From assembly GCA_964354495.1 (NCBI GenBank), contig CAYHAA010000013.1, positions 58,681-90,680 on the forward strand: a stretch of 32,000 nucleotides of DNA, written 5' to 3'. The position numbers were made by a program, and so were the translations under genes. The notes below the pieces were generated by a model. The model did not search any database. It saw only the letters and a list, made by a program, of their open reading frames with translations, and was not told the origin of the DNA. This stretch comes from an uncultured archaeon (GTDB lineage Archaea > Asgardarchaeota > Thorarchaeia > Thorarchaeales > Thorarchaeaceae). Shown here piece after piece: positions 1 through 22,943 of the stretch (position 1 is its first letter; every line of letters begins with the position of its first letter).

Positions 1-1399
1 TTCTGTTCAGCATCCACAGCATGTAGCCCACCGTGAGAAAGATACCAAAGGCAATCAGTGCCGACAGAGGGTATATCACAATAGATCCAAAGATGACCAG
101 TGCTTCTGCGATAAAGCCGCTAAAGCCAGGCAAACCAAAAGCCGCGAGTGTGGCGATTATGAACACTCCAGAAAGGCGCGGTGCTTTTGTCATAAGTCCC
201 TTGACATTAGGAATTTCCCTTGTCCCTGCACTGTATTTGAGCTGACCAGAAACAATGAACATCACGGAAATTATCGTCCCGTGAGAGAACATCATGAATA
301 TTGAACCCTGAACGGCCAAGTTTGCTGCAGCCTGAATTGCAGGATCTGCGGAGTTGTAACCAGCGGCATATGCAGCTACACCAAGCAAGACCCAAGCCAT
401 ATGATTGATCGAGGTGTACGCGACTAGGCTCTTCATGTCAGTCTGAGCCAGTGCAGTGAAAGCAGCATAGATGCACGTAAAAACAGCGGCAACTGCAAAA
501 GGAATGGCTAATCGTGCCATAGCCTCAGGTACCATCCACAAACCAAGACGGATGAATGCATACCCTCCCATCTTCAGCAGGATTCCAGCAAGAATGACAG
601 ATCCAGGTGTCGGAGCCTTCACATGTGCCCATGGAAGCCAGTTGTGAAGCGGAAAGACGGGCAATTTCACGCCTGCACCCACAAAGAGTGCAAGGGCAAA
701 TCCAATTTGAATGGTTGGATCAAGTCCAATGTTGCGTAGCGCGACCATATCGAAGGTAGGCACATGATTAACTGTGAAGCTGGAGGACATGAAGTAGAGA
801 TAGAAAAATCCCACCAACATCACAGCAGAGCCGAGGTGGGTGTAGATGAAGAACTTGATTGAGGCATGTCTGCTGCCTTCCTCACCCCACTTACCAATGA
901 TGAAGAACATGGGCACTAGAACAAGCTCCCAGAATATGAAGAATCCAATCAAATCGAATGAAACAAAGACTCCCAGCAGCCCTGTCTGCAGCAGAAGAAA
1001 CAGAGCATAGTACACATTTGCTGAATTCTTGATGTGATTCGACCCGATGGCCGCAATCCATACTACGAGGGTGGAGAGCAGGACCAAGACCATCGAGATA
1101 CCATCGACACCAAGGATGATCTCAAAGACTGGAGAATCTGTGGTTGTACCTAGTCGAGCTAAGATATAGCTCCAGGTGTGACTCAGACCGCCTGGAGCTG
1201 GACCTACTGATGGAGTGCCCAGCATCAGGAGTACGGAAAGACCCAGCTCTAGAGTTGTGATGGCCAGCGTGATGGCTCGCGCTCCCTTGTTTCCGAGGAG
1301 ATACGCTAGGAATGCGCCACCTAGAGGCATCACAAGCATTAGAACAAGGATGTTCAATGGAAGACCGTTGATTAGACCCGTGGCAAAGTCCAGCTGCAT
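1..1399 (-). CDS. nuoM: Complex I-like antiporter subunit NuoM, second copy; 3' end lies outside the window (absent from the ORF track)
   Basis: Manual translation from ATG at 1399, directly after the nuoL TAG: MQLDFATGLING...LGVDGISMVL...FFIFWELVLVPMFFIIGKWG...ASIKFFIYTHLGS...GVKLPVFPLHNWLPWAHVKAPTPGSVILAGILLKMGGY...GLPGFSGFIAE. These are NuoM motifs, not NuoN motifs. Confidence 0.93.
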   Translation of the reverse strand, partial: MQLDFATGLINGLPLNILVLMLVMPLGGAFLAYLLGNKGARAITLAITTLELGLSVLLMLGTPSVGPAPGGLSHTWSYILARLGTTTDSPVFEIILGVDGISMVLVLLSTLVVWIAAIGSNHIKNSANVYYALFLLLQTGLLGVFVSFDLIGFFIFWELVLVPMFFIIGKWGEEGSRHASIKFFIYTHLGSAVMLVGFFYLYFMSSSFTVNHVPTFDMVALRNIGLDPTIQIGFALALFVGAGVKLPVFPLHNWLPWAHVKAPTPGSVILAGILLKMGGYAFIRLGLWMVPEAMARLAIPFAVAAVFTCIYAAFTALAQTDMKSLVAYTSINHMAWVLLGVAAYAAGYNSADPAIQAAANLAVQGSIFMMFSHGTIISVMFIVSGQLKYSAGTREIPNVKGLMTKAPRLSGVFIIATLAAFGLPGFSGFIAEALVIFGSIVIYPLSALIAFGIFLTVGYMLWMLNR

Positions 1400-3601: not shown

Positions 3602-3602
3602 C

Positions 3603-5123
3603 TCATGGACCGAAAGCGTCTGTGAACGCCGGGACTATGACATCCAGTGCCAAGCTCGGGAATATTCCAAAGATTACAATGAGAATGCCAAGGATGACCA
3701 TCGGGATGGTCATTGATCGAGGACTCTCCTTCACGTCCGCAAGAGACTCGGGATGTGGACCCAAGAACACACGCCAGAAGAATCGCAACATATAGGCAGC
3801 ACTCAGAATCGAACTTGATGCTGCAATGATGGCTAGTAGCAGAAAACTCATATTGAGCTCCGCACCGGGGATTGGAATCGCCGCTTGGAAGCCTCCCAGG
3901 AACATCATCCATTCGCTTGCAAAACCTGAGAGGGGAGGACTGCCAGCGATGCTCATCATTCCTATCGCTGCCGCGAATGCAGTGATTGGCATCTTGTTGG
4001 AGAGACCACCCATCTTCTTGATATCGCGGAGACCTGTCTGATGGATGACAGCTCCAGCGACCATGAACAGCAGTCCCTTGGAGAATGCATGATTGATGAG
4101 ATGGAACATCCCACCAGACACTCCTGCAATTGTTGCAGTGCCCAGAGCAAAGAGTACGTATCCCATCTGCGAAACAGACGAATATGCAAGGAGCCTCTTG
4201 ATGTCCACCTGGGCGAGAGCCATGAAACCGCCGTAGAAGATTGTGATAACACCAAGTGTTGCTACGTAGAGAGCAAACTGACTTGCAACCACATCCAGAG
4301 TTAACGTGCCAAATCGCACGAGCGCGTAGGCGCCTGTCTCAATCATTGCACCGGATAGGAGAACTGAGATTGGAGTAGGTGCCTCTGCATGAACCGGTGG
4401 AAGCCACCAATGGATTGGGAATACTGCCATCTTGACCAAGAACCCGGCAGCAAGTAGTATGAAGATAATCTTGAAGATCAAGTCCCCAGTAGCTCCAATG
4501 TTCGCAAGTACAAAAGAACCACCACCGTTGGCGTACAGTAGTCCGAATCCAATAAGGATACACACTGCACCGGACTGGGTATAGAGCCAGAACTTGAGAG
4601 CTGTGCGCTTTCGAGTCTCTGGAAGTCCCCAGAATAGGATGAGGAAATAGCTGGGGACAAGCATGATTTCCCAGGCAATGAAGAATTCTATCAGGTTAGT
4701 TGCAAGCGTCACCCAAATCATGCCCATGATGAAGAACAACTGGTTGGCGAAGAAGGTCGGTTTGTTCTCCGTGTGTTCAGTGTATCCTACTGCATACACC
4801 ACTGATAGGAATCCGAGCACAACGACTGCGAGGGTGATGGGGAATGCTACGGGGTCAAGGAAGAGCCCGAACGGTTCCAGAAGCGTAGACCAGACGTATG
4901 TCTCCTCTGAGAAGCCTTCCGTCAAAAGCTCGTAGAAGGGCTGTATCATTAGAGCAGAGCCTACAAGAGAAACGCCAGTGGCAATCTTTCCCGCGCTATT
5001 ACCGATTCTGTCCTTGAAGACGTAGATGAGAAGTGCTCCTATGAACATGACAGCTAGAGAGAGTGCCATGAAGGGGAATTCAGAGAGGAAGGTCTGCATT
5101 ACCTGAACCTCCTTCCACGCCAC
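3603..5123 (-). CDS. nuoM: Complex I-like antiporter subunit NuoM, first copy; probable start ATG 5099 overlapping the nuoI TAA, after a GGAGGT SD
   Basis: FFIAWEIMLVPSYFLILFWG, ALKFWLYTQSG, FLVKMAVFPIHWWLPPVHAEAPT, KRLLAYSSVSQMGY, INHAFSKGLLF, PPLSGFASE. Confidence 0.92.
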   Translation of the reverse strand: MAWKEVQVMQTFLSEFPFMALSLAVMFIGALLIYVFKDRIGNSAGKIATGVSLVGSALMIQPFYELLTEGFSEETYVWSTLLEPFGLFLDPVAFPITLAVVVLGFLSVVYAVGYTEHTENKPTFFANQLFFIMGMIWVTLATNLIEFFIAWEIMLVPSYFLILFWGLPETRKRTALKFWLYTQSGAVCILIGFGLLYANGGGSFVLANIGATGDLIFKIIFILLAAGFLVKMAVFPIHWWLPPVHAEAPTPISVLLSGAMIETGAYALVRFGTLTLDVVASQFALYVATLGVITIFYGGFMALAQVDIKRLLAYSSVSQMGYVLFALGTATIAGVSGGMFHLINHAFSKGLLFMVAGAVIHQTGLRDIKKMGGLSNKMPITAFAAAIGMMSIAGSPPLSGFASEWMMFLGGFQAAIPIPGAELNMSFLLLAIIAASSSILSAAYMLRFFWRVFLGPHPESLADVKESPRSMTIPMVILGILIVIFGIFPSLALDVIVPAFTDAFGP

Positions 5124-5530
5124 TCTAACGGTTTCCTCTCTAGGGTTGTGATCTTATCGGGCCCGTAGATCAGGTCTCTTCTGTCGCCCTCACTAATGTC
5201 GACGACTGGAGTGTGGAATAGTGCATTGAATCGACAGGCCTCAACACAGTGCCCACAGAAGATGCAGCGAGTGTAGTCAAAGTAGAGGGCTGCATCTTTC
5301 TCGTACATTCTATCGTCCTTATCCATTCGTATCGCAACGACTGGACATGACCGAACACACTGCGCGCATGCTGTGCAATTCTGTCGGACATGGATGTGCC
5401 TTCCACGCGTCCTCTCTGGATAGATTCTGTCCTCAAATGGGTAGAAGTAGGTGAAGGGTCTCATGAAGACCTGCCTGAATGTGTGTTTCAGAATCTTGAA
5501 GATGTCACCCAGTACGCTGAAGAAACCCAT
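5099..5530 (-). CDS. nuoI: Complex I-like subunit NuoI, 2x[4Fe-4S]
   Basis: YPFEDRIYPERTRGRH, CTACAQCVRSCP, CIFCGHCVEAC; operon position. Confidence 0.95.
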   Translation of the reverse strand: MGFFSVLGDIFKILKHTFRQVFMRPFTYFYPFEDRIYPERTRGRHIHVRQNCTACAQCVRSCPVVAIRMDKDDRMYEKDAALYFDYTRCIFCGHCVEACRFNALFHTPVVDISEGDRRDLIYGPDKITTLERKPLEWRGRRFR

Positions 5531-5533
5531 TGT

Positions 5534-6700
5534 TTATGGACCTCCTAAGGGTAGCAATGCTGCCAGTCCAGGAAGATAGACTATCGCGAGCATTGCAAAT
5601 ATGACATTCAGTAGCGCAAGAGGAAGCAGATACCTCCAACAGTAGTGAACAATCTGATCTTGCCTAAGTCGTTGGAATGACGAACTGACAAGAACGAAGA
5701 AGAAGAAGGTGATGATGAACTTGATAATGAAGTTCACTGCACCAGGGAGGAAGGGCAGACCAACAGGCCCTCCCAAAAAGAGAGCGACGATTATTGCGGA
5801 GTAGAGCATCTGCTCTGCAAACTCTGCAAAGTAAGTGAGAGTGAAGTAGATACCAGTAAACTCAGTCCTCCAGCCAAAGATTATCTCAGAGTCTGCGACG
5901 GGTGCGTCAAAGGGGAACACACCAACTGATGCAATGGCGGCAATTAGGAATGTTGCAAGGTTAACAGGCAATACAACTGCAAACCAGACAGAAGTCTGTG
6001 CTTGGGCGATGCCCATGAGACTCAGAGAACCCGCAAGCATGGCAGGTCCGGCAGAAGAAACAATCATTGGAATCTCTGCAGCGAATTGATTGTTTGCCGC
6101 TCGGAATCCTCCTATGAGCGAGTACTTGCAGCCGCTGACCCAACCTGCAAGCAATGATACAACAGGAACCGCTGTCAGAAAGGCAAACACCAGGACAAGA
6201 CTCACAGAGAGGTCTGAAATATACCAGAAGTCAAAGTCCCAAGGTATGAAACAGAAAGGCAATAGTACAACCACAAGAAGGAGACAGGGTAGGAATCTGA
6301 ACATCCAGCGTTTTGCATTATCAGGGATGATAGTCTCCTTTGCTATGAGCTTGATAGCATCAGCAAACAACTGAAGTCCACCATACTTGCCGATATGAAG
6401 TGGTCCTCGTCGGTCCTGAATGCGACCCCAGAGTTTTCGTGTGAACCACACCGCCCATATGAGGGTGAGAACGACAAAGATGAGACCCGGAAACAAGACA
6501 GCTCGAAACAAGAACATGAAGTTCGCTGGTGAGAACACCATTGCCCAGAGCCATTCGACGATGCCCCAGGCCCAGTAGAAGACACCCAGGATGAGATTGA
6601 TTATCCATTGCAGTACGCCATAGATCCAATCGGGAATCCCCGCAAGCCAGGTAAAGAAATCGAACTGCAACATCACACCTCCATTCATCGGTCCCACCAT
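5534..6700 (-). CDS. nuoH: Complex I-like subunit NuoH; probable start ATG 6673 after a GGAGGTG SD
   Basis: RKLWGRIQDRRGP, GGLQLFADAIKLIAKE, PFDAPVADSEIIFGWRTEFTG, FQRLRQDQ; polytopic membrane protein. Confidence 0.95.
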   Translation of the reverse strand: MVGPMNGGVMLQFDFFTWLAGIPDWIYGVLQWIINLILGVFYWAWGIVEWLWAMVFSPANFMFLFRAVLFPGLIFVVLTLIWAVWFTRKLWGRIQDRRGPLHIGKYGGLQLFADAIKLIAKETIIPDNAKRWMFRFLPCLLLVVVLLPFCFIPWDFDFWYISDLSVSLVLVFAFLTAVPVVSLLAGWVSGCKYSLIGGFRAANNQFAAEIPMIVSSAGPAMLAGSLSLMGIAQAQTSVWFAVVLPVNLATFLIAAIASVGVFPFDAPVADSEIIFGWRTEFTGIYFTLTYFAEFAEQMLYSAIIVALFLGGPVGLPFLPGAVNFIIKFIITFFFFVLVSSSFQRLRQDQIVHYCWRYLLPLALLNVIFAMLAIVYLPGLAALLPLGGP

Positions 6701-7821
6701 CCAGGATACGGGTCCAAGCTTCCGAATATCACAATGAAGTCTGCAAACTTCGCGCCAGGGACTAAGTCCTTCAAGGCGTAGTAAGATGCAAAACAGGGTC
6801 CACGTATCTTTGCGCGATATGCACTCTGTGCCTTATCTTGAGTCTTGAGCCACAGTGATGTGATGCCTCGTGTTCCTTCTACGCGACCATATGCCTCTCC
6901 TGCAGGAAGTCTGTTCACTTTGGCACGAGCTTTGGGATCGATAATAGGACCTTCGGGTATCTGTGGTAATAGCTGCTTAATGATCTCTACAGAGGTCTCT
7001 GCCTCCTTGAATCTTTGCTCCATCCTGTCCAGAGCATCACTCTCTCCGGGATGATCTGGATTCTCAGTTATGGGTACTTCCCAATCACACATATTGTAGG
7101 CAAGATTCGGGTCGGGAGCATCTTTCCTGAGGTCCATAGGGATTCCGCATGCCTTAATCGGAGGCCCGCTCAGTCCCCATTTGAGACCCTGTCTTGCAGT
7201 GTATTGCCCTATGCCCTTGGTTCTCGCTCTGAAAGTAGGACTTCCCATCTGCATATCTCGGAACTTGGGCAGTCTGTCCTCAAACCTCTTGACGGCTCTA
7301 TTGATTTGTTTCAAGACCTTCTCATTAAAGTCGAACCTTGTTCCACCAGGAGTTGAGAACGATACAGTGTGTCGCGAACCTGTTAACTCTTCAAAGGCAT
7401 CAAGGGTATACTCTCGGTCGACCCAAGGCCAGAGAGCCATTGTAAAGAATCCAAGCTCTGCATTGAACTGTCCCCACCAGAATTGTATACTGTGCAGACG
7501 GGACAGCTCCATCATGATGGTCCTCATGACCTTCGCTCGTTCTGGCACCTCAAGCTCTGCAATCTTCTCAACTGCAGCAATAAAGGGATACTCAGCAAGA
7601 AATGCTTCAAGCATGCACATTCTTTCCATAACCAGGGATCCTTGCCTGAAGGTCCTGTACTCGAGGACCTTCTCTGCAGAACGGTGAAAGTACCCGGCAT
7701 TTGGGTCACATTTGACAATGTAGTCGCCGACCAAGGTCAGTTTTGTCGCCCATCCATGAGCAGAAACATGTTGGGGTCCGAACCAGACGTCTATGGCCTC
7801 ATCAAGAATGTTAGGGCTCAC
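6685..7821 (-). CDS. nuoD: Complex I-like subunit NuoD (no NiFe ligands)
   Basis: WFGPQHVSAHG, GYFHRSAEK, TGSRH...PGG, GEAYGRVEGTRG, YRAKIRGP, C-terminal SLDPYPGWWDR; neither hydrogenase CxxC pair is present. Confidence 0.93.
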   Translation of the reverse strand: MSPNILDEAIDVWFGPQHVSAHGWATKLTLVGDYIVKCDPNAGYFHRSAEKVLEYRTFRQGSLVMERMCMLEAFLAEYPFIAAVEKIAELEVPERAKVMRTIMMELSRLHSIQFWWGQFNAELGFFTMALWPWVDREYTLDAFEELTGSRHTVSFSTPGGTRFDFNEKVLKQINRAVKRFEDRLPKFRDMQMGSPTFRARTKGIGQYTARQGLKWGLSGPPIKACGIPMDLRKDAPDPNLAYNMCDWEVPITENPDHPGESDALDRMEQRFKEAETSVEIIKQLLPQIPEGPIIDPKARAKVNRLPAGEAYGRVEGTRGITSLWLKTQDKAQSAYRAKIRGPCFASYYALKDLVPGAKFADFIVIFGSLDPYPGWWDR

Positions 7822-8366
7822 TGGTCTGCCCCTCCGGTTTTTGTCGGTGTTTTTGGTGGAGTGAGGCCTGTTTTATCCAAGCGGCTTCTGTCTGTCTGGA
7901 ATCTCTTGCGAAGAGGAAATGCGCCCGCCAGTTCATCCGGCAGAAGGAGCAGTCGAGGATCAGGATGACTCTTGAATTCAATCCCGAACATCTCTCGTGT
8001 TTCACGTTCGTGCCATTCAAAGCCGGGGAAGATGTCGCAGGTACTCTCGATCTCAGGTCTCTCCCCTTCCAGCGACACTCTTAGCTGAAGCAGCATCCGA
8101 TTTGAGTGAGACCAAATGATGTAGATGAGCTCGTATTTGTCGTTTTCAAGGTCGATTCCAAAGAGTGACTCAGGAAGAGCATCATGCACTTCTTCATCAA
8201 TCATCGTCACGACCTGTCGAATCTTATTGGCAGGCACCAGGAGCTCGACCTGATTCGCGCCTAAAAGCCTTGAATTAACATCAGGATGCTTGTTGATGAG
8301 TTTTCTCGCGAGCGTTGAAGCATCAATGGTGGAGGGTTGCGACAATTCATCATCCCTCCATCTCAA
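7818..8366 (-). CDS. nuoC: Complex I-like subunit NuoC; probable start TTG 8345 after a GGAGGG SD
   Basis: IFPGFEWHERETREMFGIEFKSHPDPRLLLLP...FPLRKRF; stop overlaps the nuoD GTG start. Confidence 0.94.
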   Translation of the reverse strand: MRWRDDELSQPSTIDASTLARKLINKHPDVNSRLLGANQVELLVPANKIRQVVTMIDEEVHDALPESLFGIDLENDKYELIYIIWSHSNRMLLQLRVSLEGERPEIESTCDIFPGFEWHERETREMFGIEFKSHPDPRLLLLPDELAGAFPLRKRFQTDRSRLDKTGLTPPKTPTKTGGADQ

Positions 8367-8658
8367 TTGGCTTGCCTAAGTCAACCGAATGATATCGACG
8401 GTTATACATCAACATCAGGACCAGTGCAAGTGCAGTATGTGCAGCAGAGACAGAGATGACAAGCATGATTAGACCCTGACCAGTGAAGTTGAATATCGGA
8501 TTGTAAAGAGAGATGGCAACAAGGGCGATATTCGCTCCATTGGCCATTATCTCAGCACCTATCAGGATTCTAATGAGGTTCCTCTTCACCATCATCCCGT
8601 ATCCACCCAAACCTATCATCATAAAGGAGAGAACCAAATACCAAGTGAGCGGGATCAT
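8350..8658 (-). CDS. nuoK: Complex I-like subunit NuoK
   Basis: 102 aa, 3 TM helices; KRNLIRILIGAEIMANGANIALVA, GQGLIMLVISVSAA. Confidence 0.93.
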   Translation of the reverse strand: MIPLTWYLVLSFMMIGLGGYGMMVKRNLIRILIGAEIMANGANIALVAISLYNPIFNFTGQGLIMLVISVSAAHTALALVLMLMYNRRYHSVDLGKPIEMEG

Positions 8659-9302
8659 CAGGCATCAACCTCCTTTGATTCATCGATAGTTCGCACATCG
8701 TCAACGATGGTTCCCTCACCTTCGGTAGAGCCTGCCTCTCCTCCTGAAGCTCCAATAACAACTCCGAGTTGTTCGGCCTTGTCGATTTTCAGAAGAGCGA
8801 TTGCACCCACAAGAGCTGTGAGGATGATCAGGGCGACCATCTGCACGTAGATACCATTCTCGAACCACAACCAGCGCGCAAGTTCATTCAGATTTTGCGA
8901 GATACTGACGAATGCCTCGTTGAACGACTCAGCCCATGGGAAGATAATCGCAAGAAAGCCAGTAAGTACTGTTACAACTGCTGAAATGAGAAGACCAATA
9001 TGACGAACTCTAGGGGACGCGAATTTCTCTAGAGTCGAGTCTTGGGCTCTTGGTAATATGAGAACTGCAAAGATAATCAAAGCGCTGATTCCGCCGGTGT
9101 ACACGGCAATCTGCATTCCAGCAATGAAGGGCGCTTCAAGGAGAAGGAAGAAACCAGCAACAAAGGATGCCATAAAACCAAAGAAGAATGCGGCATAGAC
9201 AATCTCCTTATGCTCCAAGGCCAAATATGCAAGCACGAGGACCATGCCTGCCAAGATTAGGAACTCGATCTGCTCAAGCAATGCAGGATCAAAACCTTGC
9301 AT
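8658..9302 (-). CDS. nuoJ: Complex I-like subunit NuoJ
   Basis: IVYAAFF, LLLEAPFIAGMQIAVYTGGI, ILTALVGAIALL. Confidence 0.93.
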   Translation of the reverse strand: MQGFDPALLEQIEFLILAGMVLVLAYLALEHKEIVYAAFFFGFMASFVAGFFLLLEAPFIAGMQIAVYTGGISALIIFAVLILPRAQDSTLEKFASPRVRHIGLLISAVVTVLTGFLAIIFPWAESFNEAFVSISQNLNELARWLWFENGIYVQMVALIILTALVGAIALLKIDKAEQLGVVIGASGGEAGSTEGEGTIVDDVRTIDESKEVDA

Positions 9303-9304
9303 CT

Positions 9305-9802
9305 CTATCGACCTCCCGCAGCCGACTGCTCTTGCTCTCTCTCAGCCTTCATCTTCCTGTATAGCTCAACAGTCTCTCTCCCATCGAGGAATGTGTGTGG
9401 GATCATCTTCAAGGAAAAACCAATTCCGCCCATGATTATGAAAATGAAGAGGATGACCTGCCATACAGCCTCGTATTTCGTAGCGTCAGCCCATAGAATG
9501 GTCGAAGAAGAAAGGAGCCAGAGAAATGCGCCCATCACGTCGACAACTACGAAGAGGACTGTGTATACGAAGTAATTGTACGGATAAGAAATGCGCGAGG
9601 TGCCTATTGGTTCCTCACCACATTCGTAGGTCGAGGTCTTCTCGGAGTTCTGGAGTACATGAGGTCGTAGCACCCAAGATGCTAGTAGCATTAGAATGAC
9701 GAGAACTATTGCAAGTAGCGCCCAGACTATGACAGGGAAGAAATCCAAGAACAATCTGCTGGTCTGTATCATTCTTTGAAACCATCCTCTTGAGAGACTC
9801 AA
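9305..9802 (-). CDS. nuoA: Complex I-like subunit NuoA; start uncertain (TTG 9802 or ATG 9772)
   Basis: EKTSTYECGEEPIG loop, YFVYTVLFVVVD, three TM helices; first gene of the operon. Confidence 0.92.
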   Translation of the reverse strand: MSLSRGWFQRMIQTSRLFLDFFPVIVWALLAIVLVILMLLASWVLRPHVLQNSEKTSTYECGEEPIGTSRISYPYNYFVYTVLFVVVDVMGAFLWLLSSSTILWADATKYEAVWQVILFIFIIMGGIGFSLKMIPHTFLDGRETVELYRKMKAEREQEQSAAGGR

Positions 9803-9891: not shown

Positions 9892-9912
9892 GGAAAGCAG
9901 CATGATAAAAAC
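9892..9912 (-). promoter_or_regulatory. Upstream element of the nuo operon, GTTTTTATCATGCTGCTTTCC, containing a TATA-like TTTTTAT
   Basis: Plus strand reads GGAAAGCAGCATGATAAAAAC; 19/21 identical to 12886-12906; about 90 nt upstream of the nuoA ORF start. Confidence 0.6.
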
Positions 9913-10366: not shown

Positions 10367-10900
10367 CTACTCATTTGGACCAGTAGATGTAGGATCAATA
10401 GCATCAGCAGGTTTCTCGGGTTTTGTTTCAGTCTTAGGTGCCGCTTCTTCCGCAGGTTTTGGCGCACCACCATAATGGAGTGACCTTACATCCAACATGC
10501 CTGGAGAGTGACTCTCTTCGCGAGTATGCATCACCGAGAGACCTCCAGCAGTCAGTACTGAACCTCCAAGGCCCCAGGCCGAGAGATACAGTGTAGTCCC
10601 AACTGCAGGGAGAGCATTCACAAATTCATCAACAAAGATAACGAAGAAGAATCCAACAACAATCGATAGTGCCATCATTAGGCTCTTTCCTTTACCTCTC
10701 GCAGGTCGCAAATACCCAACTAGCAGGAAGATCATCAATAGGGAAATCCCGCTTAGCAGAGCAAAGGCGCTTCCAATGACCAGCACCGATTCCGGCATCA
10801 GAAAGCCAAGATAGATGAAATTGAAGATGAACGATGACAAAATGACTATGCCTAGCCAGAGCATGCAAAACGGGTCGCTATCTTGTCGAATCGACATCAC
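10367..10900 (-). CDS. Hypothetical 4-TM membrane protein with a Pro/Ala/Glu/Lys-rich tail, coupled to the FAD-NuoB fusion gene
   Basis: Start overlaps the fusion's TGA (GTGATG at 10895-10900); four hydrophobic segments; tail APKPAEEAAPKTETKPEKPA. Confidence 0.8.
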   Translation of the reverse strand: MMSIRQDSDPFCMLWLGIVILSSFIFNFIYLGFLMPESVLVIGSAFALLSGISLLMIFLLVGYLRPARGKGKSLMMALSIVVGFFFVIFVDEFVNALPAVGTTLYLSAWGLGGSVLTAGGLSVMHTREESHSPGMLDVRSLHYGGAPKPAEEAAPKTETKPEKPADAIDPTSTGPNE

Positions 10901-12837
10901 TGTATCATCCCCATCGCATCCTGGTTCTCATATCTCCTTTGCCAGTGAGTCGTGCCAGCCCGTATCTTATTCTGAAGAATCAGATGTGCTCGAATGAAAT
11001 CTGCTGGCTTCGGAGGACATCCAGGCAGGTAGACGTCGACAGGTACTACCTTGTCAGGCGGTGTCATCAGGCTGTATCCCTCCCAGAAGAGGCCTCCTGA
11101 AGCAACGCATTGACCAAAGGCAATCACATATTTGGGCTCAGGCATCTGCTCGTAAATCCTCCTGAGCCGCGGTGCCATCTTCTTGGTGAGCGAACCCGAG
11201 ATCCACAGAACGTCGGTCTGTCTCGGACCAAACAGGGGTAGCATGCCAAATCGCTCAAAGTCCCATCGAGGAGCTATTCCTGCAGCACCATCCACCATGC
11301 AACACCCAATACCATACTGCATTGGCCAGGGACTATATGCCCTTCCCCATCTGAGTACCCACTTCAGCGGCGGTACATTCTGCAACCATTTCAGCAAAAT
11401 GGGAGCAATCCGACCCCAACCGTTTCTGAACAGATCGAAGAAGATCCACATGAAGTATTTCCCTATTCTCAAAATAAATGGAAGCCAGTAGGCGAATATC
11501 TTCCCGGGATTCGAGATCTCGTTCCTGTCCCATTGGAGTTTCGCTGCTCGAATTCGGGACAGTCGTTCCTTTCCAAAGTATTGATACGCGTAGTTTGCAA
11601 ACCAAATTCCTGTGGAGTGCACATGCCCTCCGTGACGCTGTGCAATTTTGAATATGACAAAGCTCTGTGACCACGAGAGCATGTAGAAGTGCCTTCGCTC
11701 ATCTTCAAGGAAGTAGCCCATCATAGTTACTCCGGTCTTTGAGGTGACGTAGCCGTCGATTCCAGCTCTCGCAGAGGCTTGTTCAAACTGGAAGTCATCA
11801 AGAATTGCAACGAGATTCTCGAGAGGGGCAAAAGCTTGACCGACTACTAGGGTTGGCCCTCTCTTCTTAATCTTCATTGGATAGTAGCGTAGCTGCCATT
11901 CATGTTCTGCAAAATCATCATCATAGATGCGCCCTCGATACAGTTCAGTGACTTCGCGGACAACTCCTAACCCCTCTTCAATCTCTTCCTCGTTGCCCTC
12001 ATACGCAATCATTAACGAACAATGATTGGCAGGTATCGGGAATGGCTTCTTGCCCTCCCAACTGGCCTTTTTGAGGTCAGTATACTTTGACTCTTCGAAT
12101 AATATCGTGTATGGGAGTGGGCCATCTTCGAGTATTTTCTCAATTGCAAGGACCATTTGGTAGTTTTCCTCAAAACTGGAAACAATTACCTTCATCGGTG
12201 TGAGAGGTTTGATCTTAAGAGTGGCTTTGGTGATGATACCCAGAATTCCCTCAGTGTCACAGAAGAGGCCAAAATCCTTTGTCTTGACTGTTTTTCCAGT
12301 TGGCAGAACCACTTCGAGCTCGACTATGTTCTCATTGATCTTCCCGTACTTCAGCGAACCAATGCCATCGCCGCCCTGGGCAATCCAGCCGCCCACAGTC
12401 GCTGAGATGCCAGATGATGGATAGCATCGTATATCCAGACCCTTCCTGTTCAACGCAAACTGAAGATTTGCCCAAGAGATTCCTGGTTCAACCGTGACGG
12501 TGAGATTCTCACTCTCAACTTCAAGAATCCTGTCCATTCGACGCATATCAACAATGATTCCTCCTTTTCGGGGTATAGCGCCGCCATATCCTGAGGTTCC
12601 TGCCGCTCTGGGCACAAGGGGGATTTTGTGTTTTCGCGCAATCTCATAGAGCGCCTGAACCTCTTCAGGAGTCAAGGGTTGAACAAGGGCATCGGGTTTT
12701 GTGTTCATGAGCCAACCAACCTGCTTCGGAAGAGAACCAACATCTTGTCCAAACAGAATCAGCTCATGCTTCGCAGTAATCAAGCGGTCTCCAAAAATTT
12801 TGCCTAGTTCTTCAATCAGCTTTTGATTAAGGACCAT
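10897..12837 (-). CDS. Fusion protein: FAD-linked oxidoreductase (GlcD/D-LDH, FAD_binding_4 + FAD-oxidase_C type) plus NuoB
   Basis: N-terminal part: PDALVQP, LVPRAAGTSGYGGAIP, IIVDMRRMDRILEV, VTVEPGI, SATVGGWIAQGGDGIGSLKYG, TEGILGIITKATLK, ending ISNPGKIF (~11494). C-terminal part: RWGRAYSPWP, GIGCC, PRQTDVLWISGSLTKKMAPRLRRIYEQMPEPKYVIAFGQCVASGG, VPVDVYLPGCPP. Single uninterrupted 646-aa frame. Confidence 0.93.
   Translation of the reverse strand: MVLNQKLIEELGKIFGDRLITAKHELILFGQDVGSLPKQVGWLMNTKPDALVQPLTPEEVQALYEIARKHKIPLVPRAAGTSGYGGAIPRKGGIIVDMRRMDRILEVESENLTVTVEPGISWANLQFALNRKGLDIRCYPSSGISATVGGWIAQGGDGIGSLKYGKINENIVELEVVLPTGKTVKTKDFGLFCDTEGILGIITKATLKIKPLTPMKVIVSSFEENYQMVLAIEKILEDGPLPYTILFEESKYTDLKKASWEGKKPFPIPANHCSLMIAYEGNEEEIEEGLGVVREVTELYRGRIYDDDFAEHEWQLRYYPMKIKKRGPTLVVGQAFAPLENLVAILDDFQFEQASARAGIDGYVTSKTGVTMMGYFLEDERRHFYMLSWSQSFVIFKIAQRHGGHVHSTGIWFANYAYQYFGKERLSRIRAAKLQWDRNEISNPGKIFAYWLPFILRIGKYFMWIFFDLFRNGWGRIAPILLKWLQNVPPLKWVLRWGRAYSPWPMQYGIGCCMVDGAAGIAPRWDFERFGMLPLFGPRQTDVLWISGSLTKKMAPRLRRIYEQMPEPKYVIAFGQCVASGGLFWEGYSLMTPPDKVVPVDVYLPGCPPKPADFIRAHLILQNKIRAGTTHWQRRYENQDAMGMIQ
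10960..11370 (-). other. nuoB: NuoB domain (N2 [4Fe-4S] subunit) within the fusion gene
   Basis: Tandem Cys-Cys at 11299-11304 (C512/C513), GQC..SGG and PGCPP together give all four N2 ligands; the YEQMPEPKYVIA signature is present. Confidence 0.93.
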
Positions 12838-12885
12838 GAGTCCACTCTCCAGCTCATGAGCAGAGCCGCTTACAAATCGAGGCTT

Positions 12886-12906
12886 GGAAAGCAGGAAGAT
12901 AAAAAC
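12886..12906 (-). promoter_or_regulatory. Upstream element of the FAD-NuoB fusion gene, GTTTTTATCTTCCTGCTTTCC
   Basis: Plus strand reads GGAAAGCAGGAAGATAAAAAC; 19/21 identical to 9892-9912; 49-69 nt upstream of ATG 12837. Confidence 0.6.
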
Positions 12907-13041
12907 CTAGCGTACAAGTTCATGGGTACGAATAGTTCACCAATGCGCAAAAGCAGATCGTCTTCTCTATTCGCAGTCCGAATGGAAGGATTTTAAGGAG
13001 CGTTGCATCGAACCTCCTGAGTAAGTCATCACCGGAGACAA

Positions 13042-14274
13042 GTGACGATGGACTTTCCAACACTGAATGAATATGACCTTCAGAAGTACGCATTCACTTG
13101 CGCGCAATGTGGTTTTTGTCAGGTAGGTCATGGTGCTTGTCCCACCTACAAGGTGAAACGGCGGGACACATATTCTGGTAAGGGTAAGATGCTCTTGACC
13201 CGGGCATTGATGCAAGGACGAATTAGACCGTCCGAGGGTCTGGAAGGTCTAAGGGATGGGATCTTTGGCTGTACTCTATGTGGAGGTTGTGAAGAAGTCT
13301 GCCAAGTGGATATTCCGTTTGTGAAGCTCTATCAAGTGATGCGCTCGGAGTTCATGAAGCGGAACATGTGGCCAGAGAAGCTGCAGGTAGCAAGGGACAC
13401 AGTCTTGAAGAACTTCAATATTCAGGGCCAGGCACAAATGGATAGGATAGAGGGATGGTCCTATTGGACTCCTAACGAGGATGAATTGCTGGGCAAACAA
13501 GGGACTCCGGCAAAGACTGCCTTCTTCATTGGATGTGCATCTTCGTTTCGAGGCGTTTCGATTCAAGCCACAATTGCCATGACACTGATCTTGGACAAGA
13601 TTGGAGCAGAGTATACCGTGCTGGGTGAAGAGGAATACTGCTGCGGCGCTCCTCTTATCATGTCGGGAGATTTCGACGGAGCGAGAGTCCTCGCTGAACA
13701 CAATATTCAGAAGTATAGAGAACTTGGCGTTGAAACCATAATAACCAATTGTCCGGGCTGCTATAAGATGTGGGCTCATGAATATCATGAGTTCTTAGGT
13801 ATTGATCATGGTTTTGAGATTCGCTATGGCTACGAATACCTTGCTGACCTTCTTGATAAAGGAAGACTGACAGGTTTCAATACTCCTCTCAATGCCACAG
13901 TAACGTTCCATGATGGTTGCGACGCAGGTAGGAATACGGGATTTTATGAAGAACCAAGAAAAGTGCTTGAGAACATTCCGGGTGTGATATTTGAAGAGCT
14001 TCCGCATAACAGAGCAAACTGCTATTGTTGCGGTTCTGGTGGCGTACTAAGAGCGATTGATGCTGAATTCGCCAATCAAATCAATAGGCTCAAGGTAGAA
14101 GATATCGAAGCCACGAATGCTCAAATCGTAGCATCTGGTTGTCCATCTTGTGTAGATTTCATGCACTCTCAACTTCCACAGGCAGGTTCGAGTAAGACTG
14201 TGAAAGATCTTGCTGTTCTTGTCGCTCAGGCTCTTGGTCTATCATGGGACGGACTCACTGAGATTTACGGCTGA
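13042..14274 (+). CDS. GlcF/HdrD-like Fe-S oxidoreductase (2x[4Fe-4S] plus two CCG domains)
   Basis: CAQCGFC...CP, CTLCGGCEEVC, FFIGC, EEYCCG, TNCPGC, FHDGC, CYCCGSGG, SGCPSC. Confidence 0.92.
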   Translation: MTMDFPTLNEYDLQKYAFTCAQCGFCQVGHGACPTYKVKRRDTYSGKGKMLLTRALMQGRIRPSEGLEGLRDGIFGCTLCGGCEEVCQVDIPFVKLYQVMRSEFMKRNMWPEKLQVARDTVLKNFNIQGQAQMDRIEGWSYWTPNEDELLGKQGTPAKTAFFIGCASSFRGVSIQATIAMTLILDKIGAEYTVLGEEEYCCGAPLIMSGDFDGARVLAEHNIQKYRELGVETIITNCPGCYKMWAHEYHEFLGIDHGFEIRYGYEYLADLLDKGRLTGFNTPLNATVTFHDGCDAGRNTGFYEEPRKVLENIPGVIFEELPHNRANCYCCGSGGVLRAIDAEFANQINRLKVEDIEATNAQIVASGCPSCVDFMHSQLPQAGSSKTVKDLAVLVAQALGLSWDGLTEIYG

Positions 14275-14379: not shown

Positions 14380-15432
14380 TCAGCTGTTGAGAGATGCTGA
14401 AGCTGCTGCTTTCGCTTTGCGTTCTGATTGATAGTAGAACACAAGGGACATCGCAAGACATAGAGCGCCCCCGACAAAGACGTAGAGAAGAGGTGATGCC
14501 AATCCAATCAACAAGTAAGACAGTGATAGAAAGAGCCCCGTGAACAAGTGATTCGTGACCGTCGCCGCACATGCGGGTAACATCTGAAGCGATTGATCAT
14601 AGTGTGCTAGTACGTGCTTGCTGGCCATCACTGCGATAGGCACAGTAGAAAGCCCAACTACTGTATACCAGTTTGTCAGGCCGAAAAAGATGGGTAGGAG
14701 TATTGAGAGATATAGGGCCACCATCAAGACGACGTACCCTTTCGAGGCACGTTTTCGGCCGAGACGCACTACTGCAGTCAGTTTTCCAACAGACTTGTCA
14801 GCCTCATAGTCGGGAAACTCATTGATATATAGAACAGCTGTGATTAGAATCGCGACTGGAATAGATGGGAAGACTGCTTCCCAAGCAAGCACCTGAGTTT
14901 GAACGAAGTAGGCTCCGAGAGTCATAAGAACGCCAAAATTGAGCCCAATGAAGACCTCCCCAATGCCTCTATTCACTAATCTAAAAGGCGGAGCAGTATA
15001 GAAGAAACCCGAGCACACACCAATGACTCCAAGGATTAGGACTTCTATGCCTCTTGTGTAGGCAAGATACAGGCCAATGCCGCCCCCAAGAGAGAAGAAT
15101 ACCATTGACTCTAGGAAGACCTCTCCCGGAGACATCAGCCCCCTTTGGATCATCCTGCTTCCCCCGGTGAAAGGACGCACATACTCCACATTGATATCGT
15201 CAGTCCCACTTCTGTGGTCGAAATAGTCGTTGGCAACATTAGACCCGATGTGGATGAACACACCTGCAGCTAGGGTCAAAAGAAAGATGTCGAGAAGGAA
15301 TGTGCCTGTTGATGCCCAAGCCACGCACGTTCCAATGACTACAGGTACAATGGCACCCGTCAGGAAGGGGGCACGCATTTCGGCCAGCCAGGTTCTGACT
15401 CTCGAAGGTCTTACATCCATCAAATCAATCAC
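14380..15432 (-). CDS. menA: 1,4-dihydroxy-2-naphthoate polyprenyltransferase (MenA/UbiA family)
   Basis: NVANDYFDHRSGTDD, RPFTGGSRMIQ, FFYTAPPFRL..RGIGE, YINEFPDYEADKSVGKLT..VRLG. Confidence 0.88.
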   Translation of the reverse strand: MIDLMDVRPSRVRTWLAEMRAPFLTGAIVPVVIGTCVAWASTGTFLLDIFLLTLAAGVFIHIGSNVANDYFDHRSGTDDINVEYVRPFTGGSRMIQRGLMSPGEVFLESMVFFSLGGGIGLYLAYTRGIEVLILGVIGVCSGFFYTAPPFRLVNRGIGEVFIGLNFGVLMTLGAYFVQTQVLAWEAVFPSIPVAILITAVLYINEFPDYEADKSVGKLTAVVRLGRKRASKGYVVLMVALYLSILLPIFFGLTNWYTVVGLSTVPIAVMASKHVLAHYDQSLQMLPACAATVTNHLFTGLFLSLSYLLIGLASPLLYVFVGGALCLAMSLVFYYQSERKAKAAASASLNS

Positions 15433-15554
15433 GACTTATGAACTTGAAATCCTTTTGAGTTTAAGAAAAGACTTACTATAGGATGCGATTGATGCAAAAA
15501 CGACATTGCTTTAAGGCGCATACAGTCTGAACCAAAAGTTGAGGAGAATATCTG

Positions 15555-16592
15555 ATGTCAGAACGCCCATCCGTCCGCCATGAGTATGGACTAAACACAT
15601 CAGAACCTTGGCCATCTGATACTTCGTGTTTTCTAGAGAATGAGAAGATAAGGACAAGAATCAACCTCATTAATGAAGAGATCAAACGTTGCCTATTGGA
15701 TGAAGATGGAGAACCGAAACAACTCTATGAATCAGTCCGTAGCCTAGTCCTTGCAGGTGGCAAGAGACTAAGGTCCCTTTTGCTGATACTGAGTTGCGAA
15801 GCAGTGGGTGGGGCTCTCGTGGACGCATTGCCTTTTGCAGTCGCCACAGAGTTCATACAGACCGCTAGCTTGATCCATGATGATATCATTGATGAAGATG
15901 ATTTGCGTCGTGGAGTTGAAACCATGCACAAGAAGTATGGAGAGAAGATGGCAATAATCTCCGGAGACCTACTTGTCGGCCTGGCAATCAAGTTGATTGG
16001 AGAGAGAGCAACTCCCCAACTTCTATCCAGTGTTGCCACAGCTGGTATCCGAATGTGTGAAGGCGAAGCTGCCGACCTCTTGATGAGTCAAAACAGAGCA
16101 CATTCTTACACGACAAAGGCAGCGCTTGATATTATTAGAATGAAGACAGTCGCGTTCATGACATACGCTGCGAAGGTAGGAGCGGTTCTGGGGCATGCGA
16201 CTGAGGAGCAATCGGAAGTTCTAACCAAATATGCCGAAGAACTTGGTTACTCATTCCAAATTCGTGACGATATACTCGATATAATCGCCACTCAAAATGA
16301 AACAGGAGAGACAGGTTTGTCCGATTTGAAAGGTAATGTGAGTAATTTCGTTCTTGCGCATGCCATAGAGAGCTGTTCTCCGAAAGGAAGGAAGCAACTC
16401 ATTCAGAATTTGGACGAGGGTGATGTAGACTCTGCCTTTGAACATATCAAGGAAATGAAGTCTATTGAATACTCCACTGAGACTGCCAAGGAGTTCGTGG
16501 AATCTGCCAAGGACAGAATTCGCGGATCCAACTTCTCAAATGAAGAGTTGCTGATGCTCCTCGCAGATTTCGCTGTGAAACGGCAATACTAA
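15555..16592 (+). CDS. Trans-polyprenyl diphosphate synthase, probably longer than C20; true start may be downstream
   Basis: GGKRLR, first Asp-rich motif TASLIHDDIIDEDDLRRG, GEAADL, KT, second motif FQIRDDILD. Confidence 0.93.
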   Translation: MSERPSVRHEYGLNTSEPWPSDTSCFLENEKIRTRINLINEEIKRCLLDEDGEPKQLYESVRSLVLAGGKRLRSLLLILSCEAVGGALVDALPFAVATEFIQTASLIHDDIIDEDDLRRGVETMHKKYGEKMAIISGDLLVGLAIKLIGERATPQLLSSVATAGIRMCEGEAADLLMSQNRAHSYTTKAALDIIRMKTVAFMTYAAKVGAVLGHATEEQSEVLTKYAEELGYSFQIRDDILDIIATQNETGETGLSDLKGNVSNFVLAHAIESCSPKGRKQLIQNLDEGDVDSAFEHIKEMKSIEYSTETAKEFVESAKDRIRGSNFSNEELLMLLADFAVKRQY

Positions 16593-16603
16593 TTCAGCTC
16601 ACA

Positions 16604-17809
16604 CTACATGAACTGGTTCAGCAGCCTGACAAAGGTCTTCGCCGCCATATCCACAGGAAGTGGCAGGCGGCACCGAATAAGTGGCTCAAGAAATCTGACT
16701 CCAGCTAGCCGCATACATATGTCAGTAACCGCGTCTGATGGCATAACTAGATCTGCAACTCTAAGGACTCTTAGTGCAGTCACTAACTCATGACCAAACT
16801 CAGCTCTCCATAGTTCTTCGTAGGTCGACAGAGGTTCGTTCTCTGTCAGGTACCTAACAACAGATTCGCCTGCGATACGGCCTCCGCATAATGCAGTCGG
16901 AATTCCTCCACCATTTGATGCCATCACATGCCCAGCTGCATCCCCGACTAGCAATGCATTTTGATGCCACGTTTGGTGAAGGGGACCGCCCATAGGGATT
17001 ATTGCACCTATTCTTCGAATGACCTTCGCGCTCTCGACCCTGTGTGCTAGGAGAGAAAACACAAACCGTTCTAGATACTTCTTGAGAGGGGTTGCATCAC
17101 TACCGACACTTCGTCTCATACCAAAACCGATGTTGGCAAGCCCTTCACCCCTAGGAATGACCCAAGCATAACCGCCTGGTGCTATCCTCTCACCAAAATA
17201 CATCTCTACCACAGACGGTTCCACATCGAAATCATTCATTACATATTGGAGAGCTGGGCTGAGGTCTGACTCGGGGTGAATGAATCTCGGTCCCATCGAG
17301 CGAGCCACAATGGATCTAGGTCCATCGGCTCCTATGATAGCCTTAGCAGTCATTTTGTGTGTCGTACTCTGAGTTCTGACAGTCAGTTCATTCTTGCCTT
17401 GTCGTTTCAATACCGTTGAATGAAGCTGAAGCTCAGCACCCGCATCTATGGCGTTCTGCGCAAGTTGTTTGTCCAATCTCGACCGGTCAACAATGTTGGC
17501 TTCAAAGGGAAACTCAAATGTACTGCCATGTGGTGAAATCAGGCGAATGAATTTCGTCCTGTTCGTGATGAATTCCCTTGGCACATCGACAGCTCTAGGC
17601 ATCATTTTGGAGCGGGGAAACAGTCTTCGTGTTTCTGACTGCGTGGGTATGATCTCGCCACACTGGACTGGCGTGCCCGCTATAGACCTTCGGTCTAGAA
17701 TGAGTGTTCGTAGATTGCTCCTAGCGACTACCTGAGCTGCAGAAGACCCTGCTGGTCCAGCTCCAACTACTGCAACATCATAAGTTTGACTCACGAGTAG
17801 CCACTCCAT
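16604..17809 (-). CDS. Geranylgeranyl/prenyl reductase family FAD oxidoreductase
   Basis: DVAVVGAGPAGS, PVQCGE, IIGADG..S, APGGYAWVIP, ANIGFG, LLVGDAAGHV...GGGI. Confidence 0.92.
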   Translation of the reverse strand: MEWLLVSQTYDVAVVGAGPAGSSAAQVVARSNLRTLILDRRSIAGTPVQCGEIIPTQSETRRLFPRSKMMPRAVDVPREFITNRTKFIRLISPHGSTFEFPFEANIVDRSRLDKQLAQNAIDAGAELQLHSTVLKRQGKNELTVRTQSTTHKMTAKAIIGADGPRSIVARSMGPRFIHPESDLSPALQYVMNDFDVEPSVVEMYFGERIAPGGYAWVIPRGEGLANIGFGMRRSVGSDATPLKKYLERFVFSLLAHRVESAKVIRRIGAIIPMGGPLHQTWHQNALLVGDAAGHVMASNGGGIPTALCGGRIAGESVVRYLTENEPLSTYEELWRAEFGHELVTALRVLRVADLVMPSDAVTDICMRLAGVRFLEPLIRCRLPLPVDMAAKTFVRLLNQFM

Positions 17810-21538: not shown

Positions 21539-22943
21539 CTACTCTGCTTCAACTGATTTCTTGGTTGACTTCAGCTCTACCTCCAGCTCTTCAACACTGA
21601 CCCTCGGTTCAATACTCTTAGTCGCAAGAATAGCCAAGATGACGATGTTTAGAATAAGGGCGCCAAGAATGAGCGGAACGCCTTCATAATAGGTGTAGAT
21701 CAACCCTGAGAAGATAGGCGCGATTGTGCCCACAATCAAGACAAGAAGCGTCGATAGACCCAACATCTTGCCGAGATCTTTCCTTGGCAGGGACTTCTGA
21801 ATGTAGGCATCTATTGTTGTCCACCAGAGACTATCATTCGTTGTCTTCATGGCGGTAGCGATGAATGCAAGCGAGAGTATCACTCCGAAACCGGGATAGA
21901 TATTATCGAGAACTGCAACCCATGGTTCCGGGGCTATGTACTTCACTTGCTGAGCGATGAGTAGCAGACTCAACGCAACGGGCATGACTGAATATACTGC
22001 AATGGTTATCCTCTTTCCGCCCCTCTTATCGAAGGCTCGACCTAATAGAAGTGTCAATGGAACTGACAATGCGAGGGTAATCAACATCATCAAGAATATC
22101 TGGCCTATGTTGAACTCCAAGGTTTCATTGACGTAGAATAAGTTGGAGTACCCATACATGTTATCGCTGAGCGCGTCAATCATCATCACGAGGATGAACA
22201 CCGGGAATATTCTCACAAGCAGTCTTAGTCCTCTTAGGCTCTCCTTAACGAAGTCCCTGATTATCGACGAGTCTCGTTCTCGCTCAGGAATTGGCGTTGA
22301 ATCAAGCCAGATTATTCTGATGATGATTGTGAACAAAAAAGGCAACAGCACCGAAGAAGAACACTGCTCTCATAATCAGTATGAATTCCCATCCACTGTT
22401 GAACAATACACCCATGGCAAAGAGCGGGCCAAGTCCGAAAAGAGCTCCTAGGGTGAAGAGTGATACTGCGACGCCACCGTACTTCCGATCGGTCACCTGA
22501 AATATGTAGGCTGTGCCGCCTTGGCCTGTGAAATTCCCTGAGGCCATGGTGAGCAGTCCTAATGCAACTAGCTCAATCCTATCAGCAAACGAAAGGATAA
22601 GAAAACCAACACCATTGAAGACCATGGTGGCAATTGCGAGATTTCTCCGATTGTAGTTGTCCGCCAGATAACTAGCGACGAGGTTCCCAACCAGTGTTAC
22701 AGCTGTGATTAACGAAAACAACAGACCTAGTGTAACATAGGCAATACCGAGGTCGCGGAGATACAGACCCGGAAAGTTCCATACAATGTTGAGACTCGCC
22801 ATGATCCAGTTTGTTACTATGAAGACCTTGAAGTTCTTGTTTGACATCAACTTTCGGACAATCTGACTCCACGTATCATCCATTGTTTGTTTGGAAGGGG
22901 GATCGGGCACATCCATTGGTGTATCACCTAGCTCATCGACCAT
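21539..22943 (-). pseudogene. MFS transporter split by a +1 frameshift at a T6 run (plus-strand A6 at 22335-22340); pseudogene or sequencing error
   Basis: ORFs 22302-22943 (N-half; YLADNYNRRN, MFS motif A-like) and 21539-22351 (C-half; GRAFDKRGGKR, DLGKMLG) join as ...GAVAFLFTIIIRIIW... if one T is removed. Confidence 0.85.

Follow-up and report, generated by a model that had tools for sequence, protein, structure and literature searches.

At one locus of an archaeon of the Asgard class Thorarchaeia, the gene for an iron-sulfur (Fe-S) protein with two CCG domains, hereafter the CCG protein, stands head-to-head with a gene in which a flavin adenine dinucleotide (FAD) domain is fused to NuoB of a complex-I-like ion pump (FAD::NuoB), and this raises the question of what the CCG protein does there. 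The locus lies in a window of 32,000 nucleotides (nt) from a genome bin that is 97.7% complete (contig CAYHAA010000013.1 of assembly GCA_964354495.1); all coordinates below refer to this window unless a locus label (L) precedes them. A preliminary description of the sequence had named the CCG protein as the likely partner of the FAD domain. This proposal gained support from the pairing of paralogs within the genome, from shared presence and absence of the two genes, from their conserved adjacency and from an unfused CCG/FAD gene pair in one genus. We consider it probable, at roughly 0.78, that the CCG protein serves the NuoB-fused FAD domain as a dedicated redox partner and that the two proteins jointly form a flavin/Fe-S dehydrogenase module tethered to the pump. 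The features on which this reading rests are the following:

13048..14274, + strand: gene for the HdrD/GlcF-type Fe-S/CCG protein, 408 residues from the ATG at 13048
13096..13314, + strand: HdrC-like ferredoxin domain, residues 19-91 (Pfam Fer4_8), predicted to hold 2x[4Fe-4S]
13519..13776, + strand: first CCG domain with C165, C200-C201 and C237-x2-C240 (Pfam PF02754, alignment)
13900..14151, + strand: second CCG domain with C293, C329-C330 and C367-x2-C370 (Pfam PF02754, alignment)
10897-12837, - strand: FAD::NuoB fusion, 646 residues, putative partner of the CCG protein (domain search)

The open frame of the CCG gene extends from 13042 to 14274(+) and would encode 410 residues if read from the GTG at 13042. 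Almost certainly, the ATG at 13048 is the real start, because all orthologs begin there, the start codon is aligned in 17 of 17 loci and a GGAG lies upstream (13034-13037, 10 nt ahead of the ATG); the orthologs comprise 407-408 residues and their alignment starts at residue 3 of the GTG-based frame. The spacing to the fusion gene, given before as 204 nt from the GTG, is thus corrected to 210 nt. This frame is a genuine gene, and about 75 clusters of proteins 62-91% identical to its product were found in Thorarchaeota-type metagenome bins. The content of two [4Fe-4S] and two CCG motifs noticed at the outset was confirmed by domain matches, that is Fer4_8 with 42 bits (cut-off 27) and PF02754 with 111 bits over two stretches (cut-off 20.6), and by 18 cysteines that are all invariant or at least 90% conserved in an alignment of 57 sequences with identities down to 28%. 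The ferredoxin motifs read C20-x2-C23-x2-C26-x6-C33-P, in which the last spacing is x6 and not x3, and C77-x2-C80-x2-C83-x3-C87. Both CCG domains hold complete sets, ten cysteines in total, and the first is HdrB-like with CC and CPGC where EtfD has CT and CPHC. A hydrophobicity scan revealed no segment at transmembrane level, as expected for a soluble protein, and an AlphaFold2 model computed from the 57-sequence alignment reached a mean pLDDT of 94.6.

Among proteins of solved structure, mycobacterial EtfD (PDB 9ojn) is the best homolog of the CCG protein (profile E 3.5e-73, TM 0.79), followed by LutA and HdrB, while HdrC chains match residues ~10-120. As the best solved relatives are EtfD, LutA and HdrB and as HdrC matches the N-terminal domain, the protein is by its domain composition an HdrC-HdrB fusion, i.e. 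of HdrD/GlcF architecture. With two four-cysteine motifs and two CCG domains it has the hallmarks of the CCG-domain Fe-S oxidoreductases (HdrD/GlcF/GlpC/DsrK/TfrB superfamily), and by itself it is an ordinary member of this very large family. None of the NCBIfam equivalogs TfrB, LdhH, GlpC, GlcF, DsrK and HdrB came near its cut-off: TfrB scored 155.7 (cut-off 385), LdhH 131.7 (800), GlpC 112.5 (278), DsrK 52 (400) and GlcF (NF008434) 67.9 bits (333), and the locus contains no GlcE-like second FAD gene.

The fusion protein consists of a GlcD/Dld-like FAD domain (FAD_binding_4 plus FAD-oxidase_C, residues ~1-446, ending with NPGK443-446), an amphipathic linker (~447-495) and a complete NuoB part with all four N2 cysteines, which is the sole NuoB found in the genome. 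Apart from the fusion, the genome encodes 10 GlcD-like FAD proteins, and every one of their genes has a CCG gene as its immediate same-strand neighbour, in many cases so close that the stop codon of one overlaps the start codon of the other. In addition to the CCG gene at the locus, there are 11 full HdrD-like genes, and one CCG gene alone stands unpaired. Judged from gene arrangement, the fusion gene and its divergent CCG neighbour make up an eleventh FAD/CCG pair of this genome.

The pairing extends through the class, as surveyed in 87 Thorarchaeia genomes whose genera are labelled g1-g17; these genomes are relatives, and their counts do not represent independent events. The full-length fusion is present in g1-g12, and the CCG ortholog (63-92% identity) was detected in the same genera plus g14, all genomes of g13, g15, g16 and g17 being without it. 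For the orthologs of the FAD domain and of the CCG protein, the same 13 genera have both and the same four have neither. The co-occurrence that the preliminary description called for was found. The nuoD ortholog is limited to g1-g12, while MenA was found in g1-g15. Identities of MutS yielded no clean species order; by this measure g16, which is devoid of fusion, CCG gene and nuoD, is no farther from the present genome than g12, which hints at a joint loss of the three genes in g16. Fusion and CCG ortholog are arranged divergently on one contig in 51 of the 57 genomes that hold both: they are direct neighbours 165-373 nt apart in 37 genomes, and 1.4-9.6 kilobases lie between them in 14. In the two of these loci that were opened (L052:6358-10803, L053:5174-14334) the inserts encode very large surface proteins with PKD/Ig-like repeats.

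In genus g14, represented by two genomes (90% and 94% complete), the order is menA, CCG gene, FAD gene on one strand. Here the FAD ortholog is unfused, comprises 499 residues and begins ~120 nt past the CCG gene (L050:10442-11941, L051:10881-12377), and neither genome gave a nuoD match. That is, the FAD/CCG pair persists where no nuoD was found, beside a gene for a quinone prenyltransferase. The g14 FAD protein ends with ...FPPLKWLRNR, which can be aligned to ...VPPLKWVLRWGRA, where the NuoB part of the fusion begins (N-terminal helix), and this PPLKW tail may be the remnant of a lost NuoB domain. In the FAD tree g14 branches outside all fusions (support 99); in the CCG tree it is nested among orthologs that are paired with fusions. 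As the two trees disagree, the unfused form may be either ancestral or a secondarily truncated fusion.

Outside its own ortholog group, which forms a separate clade, the CCG protein is at most 37% identical to other proteins. The nearest relatives of the FAD domain are, in this order, a Hydrothermarchaeota fusion of FAD domain and NrfD, unfused proteins of 480-532 residues, and FAD-FeS-CCG polypeptides of ~1020 residues. In most of 80 loci encoding such relatives, the FAD gene precedes, follows or is fused to a CCG module. Borrarchaeum has the FAD gene ahead of the CCG gene, followed by menA, a geranylgeranyl reductase (GGR) gene and a polyprenyl synthase gene; pairs in the order FAD, CCG also occur in Bathyarchaeota, Hecatella, Hydrothermarchaeota, Altiarchaeales, Actinomycetota and others, and bacteria have FAD, Fe-S and CCG parts as one polypeptide. 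All seven scanned matches of the CCG protein with 860-1030 residues are FAD+Fer4+CCG fusions. For this clade, the earlier statement that fusion of GlcD-type FAD domains to an Fe-S/CCG module is frequent is thus borne out. The Hydrothermarchaeota protein (P0305, 867 residues) carries a FAD domain 40% identical to that of the fusion, joined to an NrfD/PsrC-type quinone-interacting membrane anchor, and is by its domain composition a second, independent fusion of this flavoprotein clade to a membrane redox module. Thorarchaeota/Hermodarchaeota loci (L058-L093, e.g. L065:412-11167) contain rows of paralogous pairs with the CCG gene ahead of the FAD gene, interspersed with genes for MenA, polyprenyl synthase and GGR; the FAD proteins of these pairs comprise 566-581 residues, with two or three strongly hydrophobic helices at the C-terminal end. 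Paralogs of this type are absent from the present genome. The strings HxGDGNxH and GEHGxG, which represent 2-hydroxyacid dehydrogenase residues, were absent in exactly this form from all 49 CCG-partnered FAD proteins examined.

The preliminary description further held that NuoB took the position of a fused Fe-S/CCG domain, whose displaced counterpart was kept next door, and that the closest homologs of both proteins might be halves of one FAD-Fe-S-CCG polypeptide. These ideas gain support only in part, for the FAD half and not for the CCG half. In the fused enzymes the Fe-S domain begins ~30-55 residues after NPGK, and NuoB follows at a similar distance in the fusion. In the FAD tree the NuoB-linked FAD domain forms the sister branch (support 96) of a group that unites the fused enzymes with one Hydrothermarchaeota pair. 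In the CCG tree, by contrast, the CCG protein falls among archaeal CCG proteins that stand alone; its closest relatives are unfused proteins of ~390 residues, each encoded beside a stand-alone FAD gene, and a topology joining it to the fused enzymes is rejected by the CCG data (p-AU 0.0003). The reverse approximately unbiased (AU) test, i.e. FAD data on the CCG topology, also rejects, although this result is weak as two very long branches are included. The shallow clades are congruent in both trees, comprising three thorarchaeial paralog pairs, Borrarchaeum, Hecatella with an Actinomycetota metagenome-assembled genome, and subgroups of the fused enzymes. An amphipathic tail (...RIGKYFMWIF...) of the FAD protein is common to unfused relatives. 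Since the CCG relatives are stand-alone and grouping with the fused clade is rejected, a pair of separate genes is the likeliest precursor, and its FAD protein would already have carried the amphipathic tail.

On the far side of the fusion gene lie the genes of the pump, and the CCG gene is followed by a gene related to quinone synthesis:

2-9802, - strand: nuoA-J-K-C-D-H-I and three antiporter-like genes
14380..15432, - strand: MenA-like prenyltransferase gene, convergent with the CCG gene

Two small open reading frames separate the nuo/antiporter genes from the fusion gene. NuoI has two Fer4 motifs, and no nuoE, nuoF or nuoG is present at the locus. NuoD (6685-7821, - strand) has its best solved match in subunit 6u8y_L of the membrane-bound sulfane reductase (MBS) complex of Pyrococcus (194 bits), while 49-kDa subunits of complex I score ~175 bits; its N-terminus reads FGPQHVSAHG and is devoid of NiFe cysteines. 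The MenA-like neighbour is kept across Thorarchaeia and is likewise found near the Borrarchaeum pair. Farther along, beyond the MenA-like gene, are genes for a polyprenyl synthase and a protein of the geranylgeranyl-reductase family, the three genes lying within 14380-17809. Apart from this prenyltransferase, polyprenyl synthase and prenyl reductase, searches of the genome for quinone synthesis revealed no MenD, no true MenB and no MqnA, the matches for MenB being crotonase-like and below cut-off. Elsewhere in the window (21539-22943, - strand), two overlapping frames of 270 and 213 residues match the C-terminal and the N-terminal half of the MFS_1 model, respectively, and look like one transporter gene broken by a frameshift or an assembly error.

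The region between the two divergent genes contains a putative promoter element on either side:

12838..13047: divergent intergenic region with two separate TATA-like elements
12989-12998, + strand: TATA-like element GATTTTAAGG, ~50 nt ahead of the ATG of the CCG gene
12898-12912, - strand: TATA-like element GATAAAAACCTAGCG with a TTTTTAT box, ~60 nt ahead of the ATG of the fusion gene

In 17 of 17 intergenic loci from several genera, ATAAAAAC is invariant and CTAGCG near-invariant, and the fusion-side element ATAAAAACCTAGCG is kept in all of them. Genome-wide, the 15-nt fusion-side element GATAAAAACCTAGCG occurs just once; ahead of nuoA (9903-9911) there is a match to its TATA half alone (GGAAAGCAG..GATAAAAAC).

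Several of these observations weigh against a dedicated partnership. As the two genes are divergent and each has a separate TATA-like element, they have their own predicted promoters and do not form one transcript. In 6 genomes fusion and CCG gene reside on different contigs, and in 3 genomes with a fusion no CCG ortholog was found; all of these are incomplete bins. In 36 of the 87 genomes the CCG gene is directly followed by genes for a DUF7530-PNPOx membrane protein (420 residues, 5-6 predicted membrane helices) and a PNPOx-like protein of 161 residues (e.g. L054:11612-13364), which could provide a membrane anchor or flavin module and be operon partners of the CCG gene where present. Finally, the deep conflict between the FAD and CCG trees suggests either that the pair was not one unit throughout its history or that long branches mislead. 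It is therefore conceivable that the CCG protein serves the DUF7530-PNPOx protein or one of the 10 other FAD proteins and that its position beside the fusion is a historical accident. We regard this as very improbable: each of the 10 other FAD genes has an adjoining CCG gene of its own, and the divergent adjacency spans 12 genera with identities down to 65%, the genes being co-present and co-absent. Moreover, the CCG gene and the unfused FAD gene are close same-strand neighbours in g14. The DUF7530-PNPOx/PNPOx pair is absent between 14274 and 14380, and no DUF7530 gene is present in this genome or in 9 of the 13 genera holding the CCG ortholog.

Even if the CCG protein partners the fused FAD domain, the direction in which electrons pass could differ. 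On the one hand, the FAD/CCG module might replace NuoEFG or FpoF as the electron-input head of the pump, with electrons travelling from the substrate through FAD and the clusters of the CCG protein to NuoI (N6a/N6b), to N2 in NuoB and to quinone, coupled to ion pumping. This is favoured by the fusion being the only NuoB, by the absence of nuoE, nuoF and nuoG from the locus, by the two Fer4 motifs of NuoI and the four N2 cysteines of NuoB, and by the distribution of nuoD, fusion and CCG ortholog, all three of which occur in g1-g12 and none in g13, g15 or g16. Yet the route is doubtful. Genus g14 keeps the pair and menA with no nuoD found, and thus the pair does not need the pump. The tether enters NuoB at its N-terminus through the amphipathic linker; in structures of complex I this N-terminus is near the membrane surface and not atop NuoI, where input modules dock, which counts against the route. 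So does the redox span from 2-hydroxyacids to menaquinone, which at about 0.1 V is small for a pump with four antiporters. On the other hand, reduced ferredoxin might feed the head-less pump, and electrons would exit via the CCG protein to a disulfide or back through FAD to a 2-oxoacid. In line with such a branch, both CCG domains have the full HdrB-type cysteines without the Thr/His substitutions of EtfD, the arrangement resembles the Fpo-like complex plus HdrD proposed for Methanomassiliicoccales, and the best solved match of NuoD belongs to the ferredoxin-driven MBS complex. This alternative appears improbable, as neither ComA nor DsrC nor an HdrE/NarI-type cytochrome b turned up in the genome, which is 97.7% complete, and as the CCG module is always paired with a FAD dehydrogenase, whether the pump is present or not.

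For the preferred reading, a dedicated FAD/CCG partnership, the following mechanism may be envisaged. The CCG protein is predicted to carry two cubane [4Fe-4S] clusters in its HdrC-like domain and two non-cubane clusters in its HdrB-like CCG domains. Together with the FAD domain it would constitute a two-protein dehydrogenase module of the widespread kind known as Dld-HdrD when split and as Dld-II/YdiJ when fused, and the amphipathic C-terminal tail of the flavoprotein would tether this module to the sole NuoB of a complex-I/MBS-like pump without NuoEFG. By analogy with EtfD, electrons would pass from the substrate to FAD, on to the CCG clusters, to the cubane clusters and to an acceptor. Possible acceptors are a prenylquinone of the membrane, which would be reduced at the membrane surface, and the NuoI/NuoB cluster chain of the pump. 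Direct prenylquinone reduction fits g14 and Borrarchaeum, and it would be the ancestral mode, given that one genus keeps the pair although no nuoD was found there; a transfer to NuoI/NuoB agrees with the distribution shared with nuo. In addition, the complete motifs of the CCG protein would allow thiol/disulfide catalysis, as it keeps CC and CPGC like catalytic HdrB.

Split Dld-HdrD pairs have the same two-protein architecture, i.e. a FAD_binding_4/FAD-oxidase_C protein encoded beside a 2x[4Fe-4S]+2xCCG protein. As in those systems, coupling of the CCG gene to a GlcD-like FAD gene recurs in different lineages, and a single genome has many paralogous pairs (here 10 more); in Borrarchaeum, Bathyarchaeota and Hecatella the nearest relatives likewise take the form of such pairs. 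Here, however, the FAD protein carries a C-terminal NuoB and the genes are divergent instead of same-strand. Collocated Dld and HdrD genes were reported for the Asgard groups Sifarchaeia and Jordarchaeia (PMC9723677), and both split and fused Dld-II-type lactate dehydrogenases have been discussed for Archaeoglobus and bacteria, including the dld/AF0809-type cluster of Archaeoglobus fulgidus (PMC3949148). Single-polypeptide FAD-FeS-CCG enzymes are represented by Dld-II of Shewanella (as cited in PMC3949148) and by Escherichia coli YdiJ, a D-2-hydroxyglutarate dehydrogenase (PMC9504171; NCBIfam NF049975). These share the domain order FAD, Fe-S, CCG, and a second module ~30-55 residues past NPGK. 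In contrast, the present system is split in two proteins; its FAD half is sister to the fused clade, but in the tree and the AU test its CCG half does not group with the fused enzymes. The YdiJ model NF049975 scored 85 bits (cut-off 1350).

EtfD resembles the CCG protein in its two cubane clusters and two CCG domains and in conveying electrons from a flavoprotein towards menaquinone. Its wire leads from the flavin of ETF via two CCG-domain clusters and two cubane clusters to haem b and menaquinone, and a CCG cluster was argued to be the point of electron entry (PMC13083937). EtfD differs in having five transmembrane helices, haem b and a long disordered tail, whereas the CCG protein appears soluble. 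Moreover, CT and a His ligand in EtfD give rise to a linear 3Fe-4S and a closed non-cubane cluster, while the CCG protein has CC and CPGC; the Thr/His substitutions render the CCG clusters of EtfD non-catalytic (PMC13083937).

Similarity also exists to HdrD of HdrDE and of Methanomassiliicoccales, namely in the HdrC+HdrB-like fusion, the complete CCG motifs and a complex-I-like pump without NuoEFG. In Methanomassiliicoccales, a head-less Fpo-like complex has reportedly been proposed to act with HdrD. The link to the pump differs, as it is provided here by a flavoprotein covalently fused to NuoB, which is absent from those models. The HdrE/NarI-type cytochrome b (PF02665) and ComA (PF02679) escaped detection in the genome although controls responded, and a DsrC gene was likewise not found. 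The CCG protein is thus set apart from methanogen HdrD with regard to HdrE and ComA; other coenzyme M routes were not searched. Pairing of flavin and Fe-S proteins is well known, and its tie to a respiratory ion pump seems undescribed: the literature searched holds no description of a FAD::NuoB fusion or its HdrD partner. The new element is the fixed pairing of the CCG protein with a NuoB-fused flavoprotein, and the value of the finding lies in this coupling and not in the CCG protein alone.

No closer relatives of eukaryotes are known than the Asgard archaea, whose energy conservation is largely inferred. To our knowledge, the electron donor of Asgard complex-I-like enzymes, which are without an NADH module, is not known. 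Taken together, our analysis indicates that in 12 thorarchaeial genera NuoB of the pump is covalently tied to a flavoenzyme that probably has a dedicated HdrD-like Fe-S partner. The missing redox module thereby gains a concrete candidate made up of two proteins, FAD::NuoB and the CCG protein. Whether the two act as a new redox head of the pump in place of NuoEFG or FpoF can be put forward only tentatively, with the odds rather against it. If so, the oxidation (or reduction) of an organic substrate would be wired via CCG clusters into NuoI/NuoB and thereby coupled directly to ion translocation in Asgard archaea.

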